Shown in pieces: positions 20,393 through 31,426 of a stretch of DNA of 43,181 bases (position 1 is the first letter of the stretch; each line of letters begins with the position of its first letter). The position numbers and the translations under genes were made by a program. The stretch lies in the sequence record DRR723986_6322; one strand, written 5' to 3'. The notes beneath the pieces are model-generated. The model searched no databases. It had not been told where the DNA came from and saw nothing but the letters and a program-made list of their open reading frames with translations.

Positions 20393-22309
20393 CTACCGCC
20401 GTCCAAAAAGCTTTTCGATATCAGCCAGCTTTAATTCCACATAAGTGGGGCGGCCATGGTTGCACTGGCCTGAATGTGGGGTTTCTTCCATTTCGCGCAA
20501 AAGCGCATTCATCTCGTCAACTGTAAGTCTACGACCGGCCCGCACGCTGCCGTGGCACGCCATGGTGCCGCATACATCTTCCAGTTTTTCCTTGAGGGAA
20601 AGCGCTTCATCTAATTCAGTTAGTTCGTCGGCCAAGTCTCGCACTAGCCCCTTTACATCCAGCTTGCCAAGCATGGCGGGCACTTCGCGCACCATCACAA
20701 CATTTTCGCCGAACGGCTCAATGATCAGGCCCAGTGCTGCCAGTTCGTCGGCGCGGGCCAGTAACCTTGCAGCAGGCGCTTCTTCCAATTCAACCACTTC
20801 GGGCAACAGCAACGCTTGGCGGGCAACGCCAGTTGCGGCAATTTGCTTTTTCATGCGCTCATACACCAGCCGCTCGTGGGCTGCATGTTGGTCAACAATC
20901 ACCAAGCCATCAGCGGTTTGGCTGACAATATAGGTGGCGTGGACTTGACCGCGTGCGGTGCCAAGCGGGTAGTTTTGGGGTGTGGGGTCAGCGGTTCCGT
21001 ATGCAGACTGTTCAACGCTGCGTGCGCTGGGGGCGGCCATGTCGCCGCGCGCCTCGAAGCCCATCTGTTCATTGTCGCCGAAACCGCCCGCCTCTGGATG
21101 ATCTCCAGTTGGATATTGGTCAGGCGCGTAAATCTGGTTCACCACATCTGAGAAGCCGTGTGGCAAGTTGGGTGCACCGCCTGCACTGCGCGCCCACGGC
21201 ATCGCTGGGCCACCGGTTTGAGGCTTCATGGCACCAAGGGCGGCGTCCGCCACCGTGGTGGAAGCTCTGTGGCCTGCATCTGCCAGTGCATGACGCAGCG
21301 ACGAGACGATAAGGCCGCGCACCATGCCCGCATCCCGGAAGCGCACTTCTGCCTTGGCCGGGTGTACATTTACATCAACAAAGCTGGCAGGTACGTCTAG
21401 AAACAGCGCCAGTGATGGGTGTCTGTCCCGGGCCAGATAGTCGCGGTAAGCTCCGCGCACAGCGCCGTTCAACATGCGGTCTTTCACTGGTCTACCGTTG
21501 ACGAACAAATATTGTTGCTGAGCATTCCCGCGGTTGTAGGTGGGCAGCCCCGCATAGCCGGTTAGGCGCATGCCTTCGCGCTCGGCATCAATTTCTACGG
21601 CATTTTCGCGGAAGTCTTTGCCGAGGATCGCGCCCAGCCGCTCAAGCCGCGCATCGCCAACAAGATTGGCAACTGGCGGCGCCCGAAAAGTGGTGCGGTC
21701 CCCATCGGATAAAGTGAAGGCCACCTCAGGGTGGGCCATGGCCAGCCGCTTCATAACGTCCGATGCCTGGGCATATTCTGTGCGGGTGGTTTTAAGAAAT
21801 TTGAGCCGGGCAGGGGTGGCGTAAAACAGGTCGCGCACTTCTATCACAGTGCCCTTTGTAAGAGCAGCGGGCGCCATTTTTGATTTGGTGCCTGCGTCTA
21901 CCATAACCGCCCATGCATCGTCTGCACCGTCCGCGCGGGAGGTTACACTTAACCGTGCTACAGCACCGATGGAGGCAAGTGCCTCGCCCCTAAAACCCAG
22001 CGATCCGATGTTGACCAAATCTTCATCTTTAAGCTTGGACGTGGCGTGCCGCTCCACGGATAAGGCTAACTCTTCAGCGGTCATACCACAGCCATCGTCT
22101 CTGACTTGAATAAGCTCGCGGCCCCCGTCTCGCAGCACAACATCAATGCGGCTTGCGCCAGCATCAATGGCATTTTCAACCAGTTCCTTAACCGCGCTTG
22201 CCGGGCGCTCAACCACTTCACCGGCAGCGATACGATTGATCGTGCGCTCGGACAAGAGGTGGATGACGCCTGCCTTGGTTGGCAACTGATGTCGGTCAGG
22301 TGAACTCAT
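20393..22309 (-). CDS. mutL: DNA mismatch repair endonuclease MutL
   Basis: [50 protein letters not shown]. Confidence 0.98.
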
Positions 22310-23940: not shown

Positions 23941-24480
23941 TCAGGGTTGACCATTTTCACTGTGGCCTTCCTTTGAGGTTTTTTTAAGGCTTTTCTGCCC
24001 ATCTCGCAAGCCATCAATCAAAAGCATGATAACGCCGATGGTTATGGCGCTATCAGCAACATTGAAAACATAGAAATTATAGTCGAAAGCGTGGAGGTGA
24101 ATAAAGTCTACCACCGCGCCGTGGACAAAACGGTCTATCAGGTTGCCCACCGCCCCACTAAGGATAAGCGAAAGAGCTGTTGCTTCAAACGCGCGTTCAG
24201 ATTTTTTGAGCCAGATTAAAAGCCACAAACTAATGCCAGCCGTTAGGGCAACAATTCCCCATTTGCCCAGCGCGTCGCCGAGCGAAAGGCCCATGGATAT
24301 ACCCTTGTTCCACACCATCGTCAGGCTGAAAAACGGCAAAATTTCAACGGAGCCTTTTGCTGGCAGGTCATAAATATTTAGCACCCACCACTTCGAAAGT
24401 TGGTCGACAAATGTTAGTGCAAAAATAGCGACTATGCCATTTTTTAAATAACCGTCATTTGTGGTGCTCGCTTGGGTCAT
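23941..24480 (-). CDS. lspA: Lipoprotein signal peptidase II
   Basis: DQLSK, WNKG, GAVGNLIDR, VVDFI, FNVAD. Confidence 0.97.
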   Translation of the reverse strand: MTQASTTNDGYLKNGIVAIFALTFVDQLSKWWVLNIYDLPAKGSVEILPFFSLTMVWNKGISMGLSLGDALGKWGIVALTAGISLWLLIWLKKSERAFEATALSLILSGAVGNLIDRFVHGAVVDFIHLHAFDYNFYVFNVADSAITIGVIMLLIDGLRDGQKSLKKTSKEGHSENGQP

Positions 24481-24482
24481 TA

Positions 24483-27323
24483 TCAGGCTGCTTGGCTGTC
24501 ATGCTTGGCCACAGCATCGGCGCAGCGGTTACACAGTTCGCCGTTGTTGGTAACCTCATCTGAGATAACCCAGCATCGTTCGCATTTGTCGCCGCTTGCA
24601 ATGGATGCTTTAACCGCAATTTCTGGAGTGCCTTCCAGCGTGAAAGCATCTGTAGGCACGTTGCCAACATGTAAGTTCGCCGATGAGGTAATTGAAATCT
24701 CTGCCCAGTCGAGATTTTCAAGCCCGATAGTAGAATCTACATATATGTCAACATGCGCTTGAAGGCTTGAGCCGATGGTTTTTTCCCGGCGCATGAGTTC
24801 TAGCGCTGCTGTTACGACACCGCGAACTTTGCGAATGCGTGACCATTTTTCTGCTAGCGCATCATCGCGCCATGCGGTGGGTGTTTCTGGCCAAATTTCG
24901 CGGTGAACGCTGGGTGTGCCTTCGCCGAAGCGAGACTGCCAAATTTCTTCCGCAGTGAAGGATAAAACTGGCGCGAACCAAACAACCAAACGGCTGAACA
25001 CAGCATCAAGCACTGTGCGCACTGCACGCCTGCGCGTGTCGTCTGGGCTGTCGCAGTAAAGCGCATCTTTGCGGATATCAAAATAGAAAGCTGACAGTTC
25101 CATGATGCAGAATTGGTATAGTTCGCGGAATACCGGGTTAAAGTCATACTCGGCGGCGCGTTCACGCATGAAAGCATCCAGCTCGGCCAGTCGGTGCATC
25201 ATTAAGCGGTCTAACTCTGGCATTTCATCAACAGGCAGGCTTTCATCTGCGCTAAAGCCATGCAGGTTACCGAGCATATAGCGCATTGTGTTGCGAATTT
25301 TGCGGTAAGCATCCACTTGACCTTTGATGATTTCCTCGGAAATGCGCACATCTTCTTTATAGTCAACAGCCGCAACCCAAAGGCGCAGAATATCAGCGCC
25401 GTATTGATCAATGATTTTTTGCGGTGACACCGCGTTGCCTGTGGACTTGGACATTTTCCGGCCTTCACCGTCCAGCGCAAAACCGTGGGTTAGCACGCCT
25501 TCGTAGGGCGCGCGGCCGCGTGTGCCACAGCTTTCCAGCAAGCTTGACTGGAACCAGCCCCGATGTTGGTCAGAGCCTTCAATATATAGGTCGGCAGGCC
25601 AGGCCAGTTCCTCGCGTTGTTCCAGAACAAAGGCGTGCGTGCAGCCGCTATCGAACCAGACATCGAGAATATCCTGAATTTGCTCATAATCGTCAGCGTT
25701 ATATTTATCACCGAGTAGGTCCTGTGCGGGTACGGCAACCCATGCATCTGCACCGCCTGCCTTAACCGCGGCAACAATGCGTGCGTTTACCTCGGCATCA
25801 ACCAAATAATCACCGGTTTCCTTGTTGACAAACACAGTAATAGGAACCCCCCAGGCCCGTTGGCGAGAGATAACCCAGTCTGGGCGGTCCGAAACCATAG
25901 CTTTGATGCGGTTTTTACTAACCGCCGGGTACCAGTTTGTTGCCTCAATCGCCTTTACGGCCTTGTCGCGCAGGCCGGTTTTCTCCATAGAGATAAACCA
26001 TTGCGGTGTATTGCGGAAAATCAGCGGCGCTTTTGAGCGCCAGCTATGTGGATAGCTATGCACAAGCTTGCCCACCGCCATCAAGGCATTCTTTTCTGTT
26101 AGCAAACGGCACACCTCGTCAGCCACCTTGTAAACATGGTGGCCTGCAACAAGCGCAACGTCCGGGTAGTAACAACCTGCCTCGTTCACCGTGTAAGGCA
26201 CAGGAAGTCCGAACTTTACATGGCCAACCTGGTAGTCATCGTCGCCGTGACCGGGTGCGGTATGAACAAACCCGGTGCCTGCCTCAACTGTTACATGCTC
26301 GCCGGGCAGCATGGGGACATCAAAGTCATAAAAACCGCCTGCATCCGTATGGCCGCGCCACGGGTGGGCAAGGATGGTACCTTCCAGTGTTGAGCCTTTA
26401 ATGTGGGCGGTTATGGAATGCTCGGTAATGCCAGCGCGTGCGGCAAACTCGCTGAGGAGTGTTTCGGCAATAACCAGTTCTTCGCCAGCGTTAATCGTGG
26501 ATTCTTCGTCTACAGCGCTCACGGAGATACGCATATAATTGATGTCATCGCCGTAACATACGGCCCGGTTTGCTGGAATGGTCCACGGTGTGGTGGTCCA
26601 GATGACAACCCGCGCGCCTTGTAGGTCTGCGCAGTTGGTTGAAACAACATCGAAGGCAACATCAATCTGCGTTGATGTGTGGTCATGATACTCAACCTCA
26701 GCCTCGGCAAGGGCGGTTTTCTCAACTGGTGACCACATGACAGGCTTGGACCCACGATACAGCGAGCCGTCCTCGGCGAATTTCAGCAGCTCTTCGACAA
26801 TCTGCGCTTCGGCATCAAAGGCCATTGTGGTGTAGGGGTTGTCCCAGTCAGCGATAATACCCAAGCGTTTAAACTGTTCGCGTTGTACATTGATCCAACC
26901 ATCAGCGAATTCTCTGCACTCCCGGCGAAATTCGATGGGGTCTACATCGTCTTTGTTTTTCTTTTTCTTGCGGTATTTTTCTTCGATTTTCCATTCAATT
27001 GGCAGGCCATGACAATCCCAGCCGGGAACAAAGGGTGCGTCTTTGCCCTGCATCTGCTGGGACTTTACAATGATGTCCTTGAGGGTTTTTTGCATGGCGT
27101 GGCCAAAGTGAATGTCACCATTGGCGTAGGGCGGGCCATCATGGAAAATAAACTTCTTCCGTCCTGCGCTGTCATTGCGCAGGGTTTTATAAATGTCTTC
27201 TTTCGCCCATTTGGCCAGGAACTCAGGCTCACGCTTGGGTAGTCCAGCGCGCATAGGGAAGTCTGTTTGCGGAAGAAATACGGTGTCGCGGTAGTCGCGT
27301 TTGTCTTGATTGTCGGCAGACAT
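24483..27323 (-). CDS. ileS: Isoleucine--tRNA ligase (type 1)
   Basis: HDGPPYANG, HFGH, GWDCHGLPIE, WTTTPWT, EGSDQHRGWF, KMSKS, C-terminal CERC..CNRC Zn finger. Confidence 0.98.
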   Translation of the reverse strand: MSADNQDKRDYRDTVFLPQTDFPMRAGLPKREPEFLAKWAKEDIYKTLRNDSAGRKKFIFHDGPPYANGDIHFGHAMQKTLKDIIVKSQQMQGKDAPFVPGWDCHGLPIEWKIEEKYRKKKKNKDDVDPIEFRRECREFADGWINVQREQFKRLGIIADWDNPYTTMAFDAEAQIVEELLKFAEDGSLYRGSKPVMWSPVEKTALAEAEVEYHDHTSTQIDVAFDVVSTNCADLQGARVVIWTTTPWTIPANRAVCYGDDINYMRISVSAVDEESTINAGEELVIAETLLSEFAARAGITEHSITAHIKGSTLEGTILAHPWRGHTDAGGFYDFDVPMLPGEHVTVEAGTGFVHTAPGHGDDDYQVGHVKFGLPVPYTVNEAGCYYPDVALVAGHHVYKVADEVCRLLTEKNALMAVGKLVHSYPHSWRSKAPLIFRNTPQWFISMEKTGLRDKAVKAIEATNWYPAVSKNRIKAMVSDRPDWVISRQRAWGVPITVFVNKETGDYLVDAEVNARIVAAVKAGGADAWVAVPAQDLLGDKYNADDYEQIQDILDVWFDSGCTHAFVLEQREELAWPADLYIEGSDQHRGWFQSSLLESCGTRGRAPYEGVLTHGFALDGEGRKMSKSTGNAVSPQKIIDQYGADILRLWVAAVDYKEDVRISEEIIKGQVDAYRKIRNTMRYMLGNLHGFSADESLPVDEMPELDRLMMHRLAELDAFMRERAAEYDFNPVFRELYQFCIMELSAFYFDIRKDALYCDSPDDTRRRAVRTVLDAVFSRLVVWFAPVLSFTAEEIWQSRFGEGTPSVHREIWPETPTAWRDDALAEKWSRIRKVRGVVTAALELMRREKTIGSSLQAHVDIYVDSTIGLENLDWAEISITSSANLHVGNVPTDAFTLEGTPEIAVKASIASGDKCERCWVISDEVTNNGELCNRCADAVAKHDSQAA

Positions 27324-27413
27324 GAGATGGTGTCTCGCTATATTCGGTGGGCGAAATTCATTCGCCGCATCATTTAGAATTCAATATGAAATAAAGTTGG
27401 GTCCCGGTCGTTT

Positions 27414-27512
27414 CTAGAACGCCGGGCCAGTAATTCGTATGCGTGCAACGCGTATCAATATGCCGCACACGACAAAAGACGCAGTTACTCTTGATTTCAA
27501 GTCATAAAACAT
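27414..27512 (-). CDS. Putative ileS leader peptide (32 aa, Ile-rich C-terminal half)
   Basis: MFYDLKSRVTASFVVCGILIRVARIRITGPAF*; four Ile codons (three ATA); stop codon lies in the loop of a CCCGG..CCGGG hairpin. Confidence 0.6.
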   Translation of the reverse strand: MFYDLKSRVTASFVVCGILIRVARIRITGPAF

Positions 27513-27520
27513 AAGCGCGA

Positions 27521-27549
27521 CTTTTATCAGCGATACCAACCGGTGTCGA
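27521..27549 (-). promoter_or_regulatory. Putative sigma70 promoter of the ileS leader
   Basis: Minus strand TCGACA, 17 nt, TAAAAG, ending 8 nt before the leader ATG. Confidence 0.5.
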
Positions 27550-27584
27550 GCGGAAACAGCGGCGTCTGCGCAGCAGTAGGTGTG

Positions 27585-28076
27585 TTAGTTGGTTTCGAAA
27601 TCTGTTGCAGCGATATCAGTGCCGCTATTGTCGAAATCCACGACCAACTTCCATTGGTCATTTTCATTTCTGAATATCAGCAGAACCCGGCCGTATGCAT
27701 GGGCTGTGCTGCCATCAGATTGCGGCAGGTTAACACGGTATTTGCCAGCAATATGACCAAACGAAGGGCCTATTGCAGTAGTTTCTTCGGTGAAATCAAT
27801 TGTGACATGAGGCGCGTTTTTGAACTGAGGCGCGTAATTGCGGCGAATAGCCTCTTTGCTTTGGCTCAGGCTATTGCCGTTGTTGGCATAGTAGATGTCG
27901 TCACTGTAAAGCGACATTAACCCGTCAATGTCTTTGCTGTTGTAGGCCGTTAACCATTGTTGCATCAGCCCGCGAATGACAGTCTCGTCAGTTTGCTTAG
28001 AGTGGCCGAACGCCGGATATAAACCCGCGTGCAAAATTGCGAAGGCGAAGGCTGTATATCGAACGAATTGTTTCAT
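27585..28076 (-). CDS. Secreted SnoaL-like/DUF4440 (NTF2 fold) protein
   Basis: Signal peptide; W..AYN.KDIDGLMSLYSDD; WKLVVD. Confidence 0.85.
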   Translation of the reverse strand: MKQFVRYTAFAFAILHAGLYPAFGHSKQTDETVIRGLMQQWLTAYNSKDIDGLMSLYSDDIYYANNGNSLSQSKEAIRRNYAPQFKNAPHVTIDFTEETTAIGPSFGHIAGKYRVNLPQSDGSTAHAYGRVLLIFRNENDQWKLVVDFDNSGTDIAATDFETN

Positions 28077-30269: not shown

Positions 30270-30656
30270 ATGGCCGTTGATATGGACATGCCGATCCTGA
30301 TCGTCGACGACTACAAAACGATGTTGCGTATAGTACGCAACCTGTTGAAGCAACTTGGTTTCAATAATGTAGATGAAGCAACTGACGGTGCTATGGCGCT
30401 GGAAAAATCACGGGCACGGCCATATGGGCTGATCATTTCTGATTGGAATATGGAGCCAATGACCGGATATGAGTTTCTGAAAGAAGTACGTGCCGACAAT
30501 CAGCTTAAAAACACACCGTTCATAATGGTGACGGCAGAGTCAAAAACTGAAAATGTTGTGGCGGCGAAAAAAGCTGGTGTGAATAATTACATTGTAAAGC
30601 CATTTAACGCCGCAACGCTAAAAGCCAAACTGGTTGCCGTTCTCGGAGATTTTTAA
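30270..30656 (+). CDS. cheY: Chemotaxis response regulator CheY
   Basis: ILIVDD, ISDWNMEPMTG, MVTAE, YIVKPF. Confidence 0.95.
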   Translation: MAVDMDMPILIVDDYKTMLRIVRNLLKQLGFNNVDEATDGAMALEKSRARPYGLIISDWNMEPMTGYEFLKEVRADNQLKNTPFIMVTAESKTENVVAAKKAGVNNYIVKPFNAATLKAKLVAVLGDF

Positions 30657-31426
30657 TGGCAGACGGAAGCCTTTCCGAACAAATAGGGATGCTTGTAGAT
30701 AACTTACGCAAGCAAGATACTGCGACCATGTCTTTAACAGACGTTGCGTCGGTGACAGAAGTGCTGATCAGCACAACCAATAAATTTCATAAGTCTATCG
30801 ATACCTCTATTTACCGGGAATGCCGCGCGCTGAGCGACTATATTACCAATGCACGTAAAGAAATTGCTTCCTTGCAACCCGTCGATTTGGAAAGCGCGCG
30901 CATACCACGGGCAGGGCTTGAATTGGATGCGATTGTTCAGCAAACCGAGGAAGCAACCAACACAATTATGGCAGCGGCCGAAGAGATTATGGGCGCGGAC
31001 ACCACAAACCCTGAAGCGTATCAAGCCACTACAAATGACGCAGTGATGCGCATATTCGAGGCCTGCTCGTTTCAAGATATTACCGGTCAGAGAATTTCAA
31101 AGGTGGTGCAAACTTTGGCCCATATTGAAGAACGGGTTCTGGAACTGCGTAATTTAATGGGTATTACGGCGGAAGATATTAAAGAAGCAATGACTGACGA
31201 GCAGCAGCAAAGCGATACATCTCTTTTGTCCGGGCCAGCGCTTGAAGGCGAGGGGATAGACCAAAATGCTGTTGATCAGTTGATGGATGATGCGCCCTTG
31301 CATGAATCAACATCAGACGACGGTGCAAAGAAAGCCTCGTCAAAGGGAAAAGCAAAAGCCAGTGCCGCTGATGCTTCTATCGCCGATGATATCAGTCAGG
31401 ATGATATTGACGCTTTATTTGGCTGA
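30656..31426 (+). CDS. cheZ: Alphaproteobacterial CheZ phosphatase
   Basis: ELDAIVQQTEEATNTIM, FEACSFQDITGQRISKVV, C-terminal SQDDIDALF; TAATG coupling to cheY. Confidence 0.92.
   Translation: MADGSLSEQIGMLVDNLRKQDTATMSLTDVASVTEVLISTTNKFHKSIDTSIYRECRALSDYITNARKEIASLQPVDLESARIPRAGLELDAIVQQTEEATNTIMAAAEEIMGADTTNPEAYQATTNDAVMRIFEACSFQDITGQRISKVVQTLAHIEERVLELRNLMGITAEDIKEAMTDEQQQSDTSLLSGPALEGEGIDQNAVDQLMDDAPLHESTSDDGAKKASSKGKAKASAADASIADDISQDDIDALFG

Follow-up and report, generated by a model that had tools for sequence, protein, structure and literature searches.

A conserved leaderless reading frame upstream of ileS-lspA in Alphaproteobacteria, a candidate ribosome-stalling sensor of charged tRNA-Ile

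We analysed a 43,181-nucleotide (nt) stretch of DNA, sequence record DRR723986_6322 (hereafter the window), in order to understand the region upstream of ileS, the gene for isoleucyl-tRNA synthetase (IleRS). Comparison with related loci indicates that ileS and the adjoining lspA are preceded by a real, conserved and translated leader: a short upstream open reading frame (uORF) that begins at or near the mRNA 5' end, runs through an invariant CGA-AUU-A sequence and ends inside a hairpin. Across 13 sequences this anatomy is conserved, the reading frame is specific, the constraint acts at the level of codons and the geometry is fixed. We favor, with a probability of about 0.55, the reading that the leader acts in cis as a ribosome-stalling sensor of charged tRNA-Ile(GAU) at one codon. 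Taken together, a frame-conserved leader with an Ile codon, a covarying hairpin that holds the stop and the absence of a general intrinsic terminator are best read as stalling whose output is non-classical. The initial annotation of this DNA had proposed Ile-dependent stalling control of ileS-lspA by a translational or Rho-dependent mechanism; the conserved, frame-specific leader and its covarying hairpin support the first part of that proposal, while translational control through the ribosome-binding site (RBS) is unsupported.

All features of the leader lie on the minus strand. ileS (24483..27323; 946 amino acids (aa); Pfam tRNA-synt_1 at 2.8e-141, Anticodon_1 and zf-FPG_IleRS) is followed by lspA, encoding signal peptidase II (23941..24480; Pfam Peptidase_A8 at 4.3e-37), with a gap of 2 nt between the ileS stop and the lspA start, and the two genes are probably co-transcribed. 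For comparison, genome contigs were scanned with the IleS protein. From at least 598 stretches that encode IleS, the 80 best matches were kept as related loci, a sample biased toward relatives of this IleS. Twelve of these loci share the leader element with the window, which gives a comparison set of 13 sequences. The nearest IleS proteins among the 80 loci are those of Kordiimonas (L002, 83% identity; L001, 81%; L027, 73%), and because these closest proteins are from Kordiimonas we take the window to derive from a Kordiimonas-like alphaproteobacterium.

The proposed sensor consists of an Arg codon, an Ile codon and one further base, CGA-AUU-A, at 27431..27437. All seven bases are identical in 13/13 alignment rows, within surroundings that cannot be aligned, and they are followed by 4 nt (5 in L050) and then by an invariant CCC that opens the hairpin. 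For the composite string CGAATTA-N4-CCC, the window has a single occurrence where 0.07 would be expected. Across the 80 loci, about 642 kilobases (kb) of sequence, it turns up in only 11, a single time in each and in every case ahead of ileS on the same strand as the gene. In the ileS coding sequences (CDSs) of the 13 genomes, CGA makes up 0-8% of the Arg codons; the ATT share of the Ile codons is 58% in the window and 2-37% in the other 12. Because CGA and AUU are mostly minority codons and yet invariant here, the constraint falls on codons or nucleotides and not on the peptide.

The uORF (27414..27512) comprises 32 codons and a TAG stop at 27416-27414, encodes the peptide MFYDLKSRVTASFVVCGILIRVARIRITGPAF and shares its frame with a listed 41-aa ORF starting at TTG (27414-27539). 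In the 13 sequences it is 15-33 codons long, the first 7-25 codons are unalignable, and the lengths differ in steps of 3 nt, within the Kordiimonas group as well. In 13/13 sequences, an ORF started by ATG runs into the motif so that CGA and AUU are read as codons, compared with 1/13 and 3/13 for the other two frames, and the first stop downstream falls in the hairpin region in 13/13, compared with 0/13 and 4/13. L050 has this stop directly ahead of the hairpin, and the other 12 sequences have it within the hairpin. These comparisons argue that the uORF is translated; for the window, translation and the transcription start are predicted from conservation. At the peptide level only M1, R and I are invariant among the 13. 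R-I is followed by two variable residues (T/S/I/N, then G/R/T/V/N), and a Pro stands three residues past R-I in 12/13, L050 ending in R-I-I-stop. In the window this Pro, the last residue of RITGP, is encoded by the CCC/CCG codon of the hairpin arm. A protein-collection search with the same-frame 41-aa ORF gave no candidate, a result that says nothing about conservation. A lipobox, FVVC, in the window peptide was rejected as a feature of the leader, being unconserved among the 13 peptides.

Codons 18-27 of the window uORF contain four Ile codons, ATA, ATA, ATA and ATT, as the initial annotation had noted, and from the three ATA codons it had suggested that the leader reads the status of lysidine-modified tRNA-Ile2. 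This does not extend to the family: the conserved codon is AUU after CGA, and because AUA codons are confined to the Kordiimonas group (three in the window and one each in L001, L002 and L027), tRNA-Ile2 sensing is not the conserved principle and would be lineage-specific at best. The Kordiimonas uORFs hold 2-5 Ile codons, that is, 1-4 extra ones just upstream of the invariant AUU, and these extra codons fit Ile sensing. Two members carry repeats of the motif region: L076 (2860-2900) has a second in-frame CGA-ATT (GCT CGA ATT GGA) earlier in its uORF, and L001 (2845-2865) has GCAATTACAGG upstream in the uORF, a near-repeat of CGAATTACTGG. These may be partial duplications of the sensor. The likeness of RITGP to the SecM arrest motif IRAGP, also pointed out at the outset, is an accident of the hairpin arm, given the variable residues after R-I and the R-I-I-stop ending of L050. 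The leader does not classify as an arrest peptide of the SecM or RAGP/RAPP kind, having no conserved C-terminal peptide motif and having Arg and Ile fixed as codons. Alignment of the upstream regions, the check that had been suggested, bore out the uORF frame and the covariation of the hairpin, but the anticipated RI(I/T)GP frame is not conserved beyond the R-I codons and, in most members, the Pro. Because only CGA-AUU and its spacing are invariant across the family, with AUA lineage-limited and the peptide variable, the sensor is best placed in CGA-AUU with its precisely spaced hairpin, not in AUA codons or a SecM-like peptide.

The hairpin that holds the stop, hairpin B, is formed by CCCGGCGUU (27426-27418) and AACGACCGGG (27412-27403) around a CUAGA loop with the uORF stop, and can be extended to 27400-27428. 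It has a predicted energy of -14.8 kcal/mol (z = -3.5), and 0 of 200 shuffled sequences fold as well. In the family consensus, five of nine pairs show compensatory changes; the stems of the clades differ (CCCGG/CCGGG, CCCCA/UGGGG, CCCCC/GGGG, with entirely different inner stems) and pairing is retained. The spacer between AUU and the hairpin is 5 nt in 12/13 sequences and 6 nt in L050, and the stem is 9-11 base pairs (bp) long in 10/13, being longer in L050, L068 and L076. A covariance model trained on 10 of the 13 sequences and run on the window and loci (685 kb) found one copy in the window and recovered the held-out L076 (E = 3e-4), L068 (E = 2.7e-3) and, weakly, L050 (E = 2.6). The sole other match with E < 0.1 was the palindromic L065 hairpin again, on its reverse strand (E = 0.018), and no further convincing match was present in the 685 kb.

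The leader as a whole (27300-27520) is also more stable than expected (z = -3.0; 0/200 shuffles as good). A second hairpin, hairpin C (GGCGAA-UGAAU-UUCGCC, 27366-27350), which had been read from the sequence before, is confirmed at -9.6 kcal/mol (z = -3.2; 1/200 shuffles as good), and by eye the Kordiimonas relatives have a hairpin of another sequence at its place. A GAGA/UCUC stem over the ileS RBS (27336-27324), noted in the same earlier reading, is present, but it has only 4 bp, is weak (-2.8 kcal/mol; 6/200 shuffles as good) and is not conserved in the relatives, and modelling of a stall showed no dependent change in RBS accessibility. A hairpin within the window uORF (27438-27480; z = -0.6) is not special and was set aside. 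The spacer downstream also contains a second small ORF (27338-27373, minus strand: ATG ATG CGG CGA ATG AAT TTC GCC CAC CGA ATA TAG), which overlaps hairpin C and ends in CGA-ATA-stop; at the corresponding TTGATG, L001 and L002 have only 3-codon ATG..TGA mini-ORFs.

Upstream of the uORF, a -35-like TCGACA (27549-27544) and a -10-like TAAAAG (27526-27521), separated by 17 nt, can be read in the sequence, and the uORF ATG (27512-27510) follows 8 nt past the -10 hexamer. The promoter and the near-leaderless 32-codon uORF both stand as first described, and the arrangement recurs in the 12 related loci: a TAnAnn hexamer lies 6-8 nt before the uORF ATG in 12/12 (by eye), TCGACA lies 17 nt ahead of the -10 in L001, L002, L027, L007, L074 and L077 (as CTCGACA in relatives), and the other relatives have TTGA-type variants at the -35 position. 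A consensus promoter scan did not list this promoter; the tool demands T at -10 position 6, which TAAAAG does not have. Because there is no room for a Shine-Dalgarno sequence between the -10 and the ATG, the mRNA should be leaderless. Loci without the leader can retain a promoter of this type; in L020 (2900-2992), for instance, CTCGACT-N17-TTACAA stands directly ahead of a plain 5' untranslated region. Relative to the uORF, the promoter seems to be older or more stable.

The position of the hairpin relative to the codon pair suggests how decoding could be slowed. When CGA occupies the ribosomal P site and AUU the A site, the spacer of 5 nt sets the start of the hairpin stem 11 nt downstream from the first nucleotide in the P site, which is the position of the mRNA entry channel. 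AUU is decoded by tRNA-Ile(GAU) through a G:U wobble. CGA is decoded by tRNA-Arg(ICG) through inosine (PMC3711424), and in yeast CGA-headed codon pairs stall ribosomes with empty A sites (10.1101/755652). Bao et al. (2020) showed that stem-loops of dnaX and human immunodeficiency virus (HIV) inhibit A-site tRNA binding on E. coli ribosomes (PMC7282821), and the 11-nt placement seen here is that from which stem-loops have this effect. dnaX has a 5-nt spacer and an 11-bp hairpin (PMC8861025). The ileS leader resembles such a dnaX-type frameshift site in its 5-nt spacer from the A-site codon and its hairpin of about 10-11 bp (PMC7282821, PMC8861025), and with spacers of 5 or 6 nt all 13 members place the stem-loop within the 5-9 nt past the A-site codon that characterize dnaX-type sites. 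Unlike those sites, it is without a slippery X XXY YYZ sequence, and three members have much longer hairpins. We considered -1 or +1 frameshifting at CGAAUUA and rejected it, as no register fits X XXY YYZ; because CGAAUUA is unfit as a slippery heptamer, no frameshift is expected. A pause in the ileS leader would serve sensing, where that in dnaX serves recoding.

In the stalling reading, a housekeeping-type promoter would start transcription at or beside the uORF ATG and yield a leaderless mRNA, on which a ribosome would cross the variable 7-25 codons and arrive at CGA-AUU. There, the I:A wobble at CGA, the G:U wobble at AUU and a GC hairpin of about 10 bp lying 11 nt on could converge to slow the arrival of Ile-tRNA at AUU, making its delivery rate-limiting. 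With ample Ile-tRNA, the ribosome would unwind the hairpin and terminate at the stop inside it; with Ile-tRNA scarce, it would remain parked at AUU and leave the hairpin intact.

We then considered how a stall could reach ileS. No hairpin with a U tract of the terminator kind was found at the window leader, either by a tool scan of the minus strand of this region or in a scan of the leader itself, in agreement with the initial annotation, and only one of the 13 leaders, that of L001, has such a structure; an intrinsic terminator as the conserved output was therefore rejected. A polymerase pause at a fixed distance was likewise rejected, the U-rich tract lying 11-19 nt from the hairpin (by eye). 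The spacer from hairpin B to the ileS ATG (27324..27402) has more C than G (C/G 1.67) and contains the pyrimidine tract ACCCAACUUUAUUUC. C/G exceeds 1 in 11 of the 13 leaders, with a pooled value of 1.44, compared with 1.05 (57% of loci above 1) in the last 50 nt before ileS at 67 element-free loci; the spacers are short, 38-105 nt in the family. Their C-richness hints at a modest Rho utilization (rut)-like signal and so at Rho. By eye, a CUU[U/C] tract, often CUUU(Y)G, lies at a variable 8-17 nt past the hairpin in 8/13 (27380-27402 in the window). Taken by itself, a Rho-dependent output is less probable than not. As a leading guess, we would rank control of Rho-dependent termination ahead of mRNA protection by the parked ribosome, and the latter ahead of translational control. 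Terminator/antiterminator switching and RBS sequestration both seem unlikely.

Several points weigh against the stalling reading and belong together here. The stalling itself, its dependence on Ile and its direction, a stall raising ileS, are what we infer from the arrangement of the leader. The invariance takes in the base that follows AUU; codon identity by itself does not account for this, and an RNA-level reading may apply. Most members have just one Ile codon, where classical attenuators use runs of regulatory codons, and Ile residues besides the invariant one, 21 of 295 by hand count, are not clearly enriched. The effect of an I:A wobble in the P site is documented in yeast and not in bacteria, so that its action here would be a carry-over between the two. 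On the output side, no mechanism linking a ribosome parked at AUU to downstream expression was found. RBS sequestration was rejected: duplexes between leader and RBS are no better than in shuffled sequences (z from -2.5 to +1.7) and their positions are inconsistent, and when a stall is modelled the unpaired probability of the ileS RBS goes up in 3, down in 4 and is unchanged in 6 of the 13. An anti-hairpin stem between the 20 nt upstream of the motif and the hairpin 5' arm has a mean z of -0.62, with values below -1.5 in 4/13; such a competing stem is clear in L076, L016 and L001 and is not general, and for the 3' arm no partner was seen by eye. It is not obvious how a ribosome stalled upstream of the hairpin would mask a rut site downstream of it. 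Finally, if the hairpin acted on RNA polymerase and a stall favored the hairpin, ileS would go down, the opposite of the expected feedback.

Other explanations account for parts of these data. The invariant bases could be an RNA-level element, CGAAUUA beside a hairpin serving as the recognition site of a protein, tRNA or RNase, with the uORF only modulating access; candidates are an RNase E-type cut in the sole AU-rich island of a GC-rich leader, and binding of IleRS or tRNA-Ile. That all seven bases are invariant, the one following the Ile codon among them, and that deep lineages show no synonymous replacement would follow directly from such a site, and a ribosome parked there would shield it, giving the expected direction of regulation. 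GA/AUU also resembles the sequence preference of RNase E. In several members the motif can occupy the loop of a small stem (by eye: a 5-bp stem with a 7-nt loop in L077, a 6-bp stem with an 8-nt loop in L076), but the enclosing stem is inconsistent: loops range from 7 to about 19 nt, and the stem scores, those given above for pairing with the upstream 20 nt, fall below -1.5 in only four members. A pure RNA site needs neither the frame-specific ATG ORF nor the in-hairpin stop, found in 13/13 against 0-4/13 for the other frames, and no Rfam family, T-box included, matches the leader. The CGAAUUA loop agrees with a tRNA-Ile anticodon loop at only 4/7 positions, which counts against this explanation. 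We consider an RNA-level element of any of these kinds unlikely. Still less likely is a device for translational coupling or polarity, in which the hairpin acts on RNA polymerase, as a pause site or terminator, unless a trailing ribosome melts it, so that translation turns ileS on and ileS-lspA output is tied to translational capacity. The hairpin is the default structure, opened only during ribosome passage and relevant only co-transcriptionally, and it is followed by AGAUUUUUU in L001, where it is scored terminator-like, by U-rich tracts in the Kordiimonas relatives and by the CUU[U/C] tract in the eight members mentioned above. This explanation implies a positive feedback on IleRS that is hard to rationalize and leaves an invariant Ile codon upstream of ileS unexplained; the absence of a terminator-like hairpin from 12 of the 13, and a distance of 11-19 nt to the U tract that allows no fixed-distance pause, also speak against it.

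That the leader is a conserved housekeeping 5' region, a promoter and a stabilizing hairpin with a chance ORF, is improbable. In the Caulobacter study discussed below, the leader CDS served only as an inert overexpression control (PMC4117421), which would suit such an explanation. Against it, the seven bases, spacing, frame and in-hairpin stop are kept, amid unalignable surroundings, across at least six separate alphaproteobacterial groups, and the invariant codon is cognate to the synthetase encoded downstream. We give very little weight to nascent-peptide arrest of the SecM/RAPP, TnaC or SpeFL type, in which a peptide ending in R-I-x-G-P would cause the stall; its trigger might be free isoleucine or how lipoprotein processing by LspA stands. 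R-I is invariant with a Pro three residues on in 12/13, lspA lies downstream in the operon, and known arrest peptides do act on downstream genes via stalled ribosomes. Against this, the N-terminal 7-25 residues are conserved neither in length nor in sequence and so offer no sensor domain, the residues from I to P vary and L050 has no Pro at all, the Pro codon is the invariant CCC/CCG of the hairpin arm, and Arg and Ile are fixed as codons, which a constraint on the peptide would not require.

Returning to the stalling reading, we compared the leader with known systems. In the attenuation of pheST (pheM), trp, his and ilv, a leader ORF contains cognate codons and the position of the ribosome reports charged tRNA, not the free amino acid. 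In its working, the ileS leader would be most like such leader-peptide attenuation of a synthetase operon, of the pheST type: it has a short ORF whose Ile codon, AUU in 13/13, is cognate to ileS. It differs in being leaderless, in having one invariant Ile codon and in placing the stop inside a hairpin after the sensor codon; moreover, 12/13 leaders are without a Rho-independent terminator, and an antiterminator alternative is not well supported. Because those 12 are without the terminator that defines the class, the ileS leader is not a classical attenuator. The leader ORFs tnaC, speFL and mgtL control Rho-dependent termination, with peptides or Pro codons as the sensors, and the stalled ribosome overlaps a rut site or switches RNA structures. 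The ileS leader shares with them a short ORF without an intrinsic terminator, a C-rich untranslated stretch and, as proposed here, a stalled ribosome as the effector. Unlike them, its stall site lies upstream of the hairpin with no evident structure switch, and a role of Rho rests on the modest C/G skew. The ileS T-box of Firmicutes and Actinobacteria concerns the same gene and reads tRNA-Ile charging through an Ile codon in the leader, but it binds the tRNA directly without a ribosome and has conserved stem I and T-box sequences (PMC1262725). Rfam 15 gave no match at the gathering score in the whole window, T-box included, and at E <= 10 the region 27200-27700 gave only a chance microRNA match (E = 6), the T-box again not being matched.

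A literature search for ileS leaders, with most subscription journals outside its coverage, found no description of an alphaproteobacterial ileS leader mechanism and a single mention, in Caulobacter. Schrader et al. (2014) list an 'ileS leader CDS (CCNA_03934)' in Caulobacter crescentus NA1000 as a new ORF mapped by ribosome profiling (PMC4117421). It is given as 796784-796828 on the minus strand, 14 codons and a stop (supplement file 2), and is included among the leaderless mRNAs whose 5'-PPP site was identified; with ileS at 793796-796705, its stop lies 78 nt before ileS. Its detection by ribosome profiling lends experimental support, from another alphaproteobacterium, to the translation of such a leader. 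The paper presents the CDS as a negative control only and proposes no mechanism (PMC4117421). Compared by coordinates and architecture alone, CCNA_03934 is like the leader described here: a short, leaderless, alphaproteobacterial ATG ORF upstream of ileS-lspA, whose distance from stop to ileS is within the 46-113 nt of the window family. The paper also lists a small leader CDS ahead of trpS in Caulobacter (PMC4117421), and leader ORFs may be a general means of regulating synthetase genes in Alphaproteobacteria. We tentatively propose, at somewhat less than even odds, that these leaders form an undescribed class of attenuator that is widespread in Alphaproteobacteria and probably includes the Caulobacter CDS, a minimal, leaderless, single-codon hungry-codon sensor in which the parked ribosome, and not an RNA switch, controls Rho access or mRNA decay. 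Its sensitivity to Ile-tRNA would come from a P-site CGA read by I:A wobble, an A-site AUU read by G:U wobble and a hairpin of the frameshift kind, docked at the mRNA entry or the A site.

The distribution of the element suggests an old origin. Besides the window, it is present in three Kordiimonas loci (L001, L002, L027), Kordiimonadales bacterium IMCC3096 (L007), four Rhodospirillales-type metagenome-assembled genomes (MAGs; L016, L050, L065, L077), a contig under a Marinimicrobia label, with an IleS sister to that of L016 (L019), an uncultured alphaproteobacterium (L068), Sneathiella (L074) and Parvibaculaceae (L076). A FastTree phylogeny was built from 78 IleS proteins, those of 77 loci and the window, leaving out L003, which has no 5' end, and L050 and L070, which have fewer than 600 aa. 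All 12 element-bearing rows of the tree fall in one clade of 39 alphaproteobacterial rows (support 96), and the element is found in 0/19 non-alphaproteobacterial rows and in 0/19 basal alphaproteobacterial rows (Pelagibacterales, PS1, MarineAlpha, L051). Within the clade its occurrence is patchy: well-supported branches require at least 3 changes, and the drawn tree 6; shuffled labels require 11.4 changes on average and 0/500 shuffles are as low, indicating strong clustering. This pattern fits an old element with repeated loss. Kordiimonas sp. NAT158 (L043, 2880-3000) is without the element and has a similar promoter, ATC in place of the uORF ATG, CGCAATTTA where CGAATTA would stand and CCCGG close by, which suggests a decayed remnant and loss by decay. 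L019, L052 and L033 are labelled Marinimicrobia, Patescibacteria and Gammaproteobacteria, and their IleS proteins are nested in the alphaproteobacterial clade, that of L019 being sister to that of a Rhodospirillaceae MAG; these labels are probably the result of mis-binning.

The intergenic region that holds the leader lies between ileS and a SnoaL/DUF4440 gene (27585-28076), and the gene order on the minus strand, with identities from Pfam, is ribF, TerC, the SnoaL-like gene, the leader, ileS, lspA and a DUF3035 gene. Nearby are genes for a CheY-like receiver with CheZ (30270-31426, plus strand) and mutL (20393-22309, minus strand), ordinary genes that show no evident link to the leader, and the 43,181-nt window contains no tRNA genes.

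Regulation of ileS in Proteobacteria is poorly understood compared with the T-box control of Gram-positive bacteria. If the stalling reading is true, the leader would correspond, in Alphaproteobacteria, to the ileS T-box, a charged-tRNA sensor for the same gene on a different principle, and would account for the orphan ileS leader CDS seen by ribosome profiling in Caulobacter. It would also show a hairpin of the frameshift type and an unfavorable codon pair being used in nature to tune the decoding of one codon instead of recoding it, so that the hairpin-hindered A-site binding seen in vitro would become testable in vivo, and it predicts a response to IleRS inhibitors such as mupirocin. The motif and hairpin together provide an easy signature for annotating such leaders.

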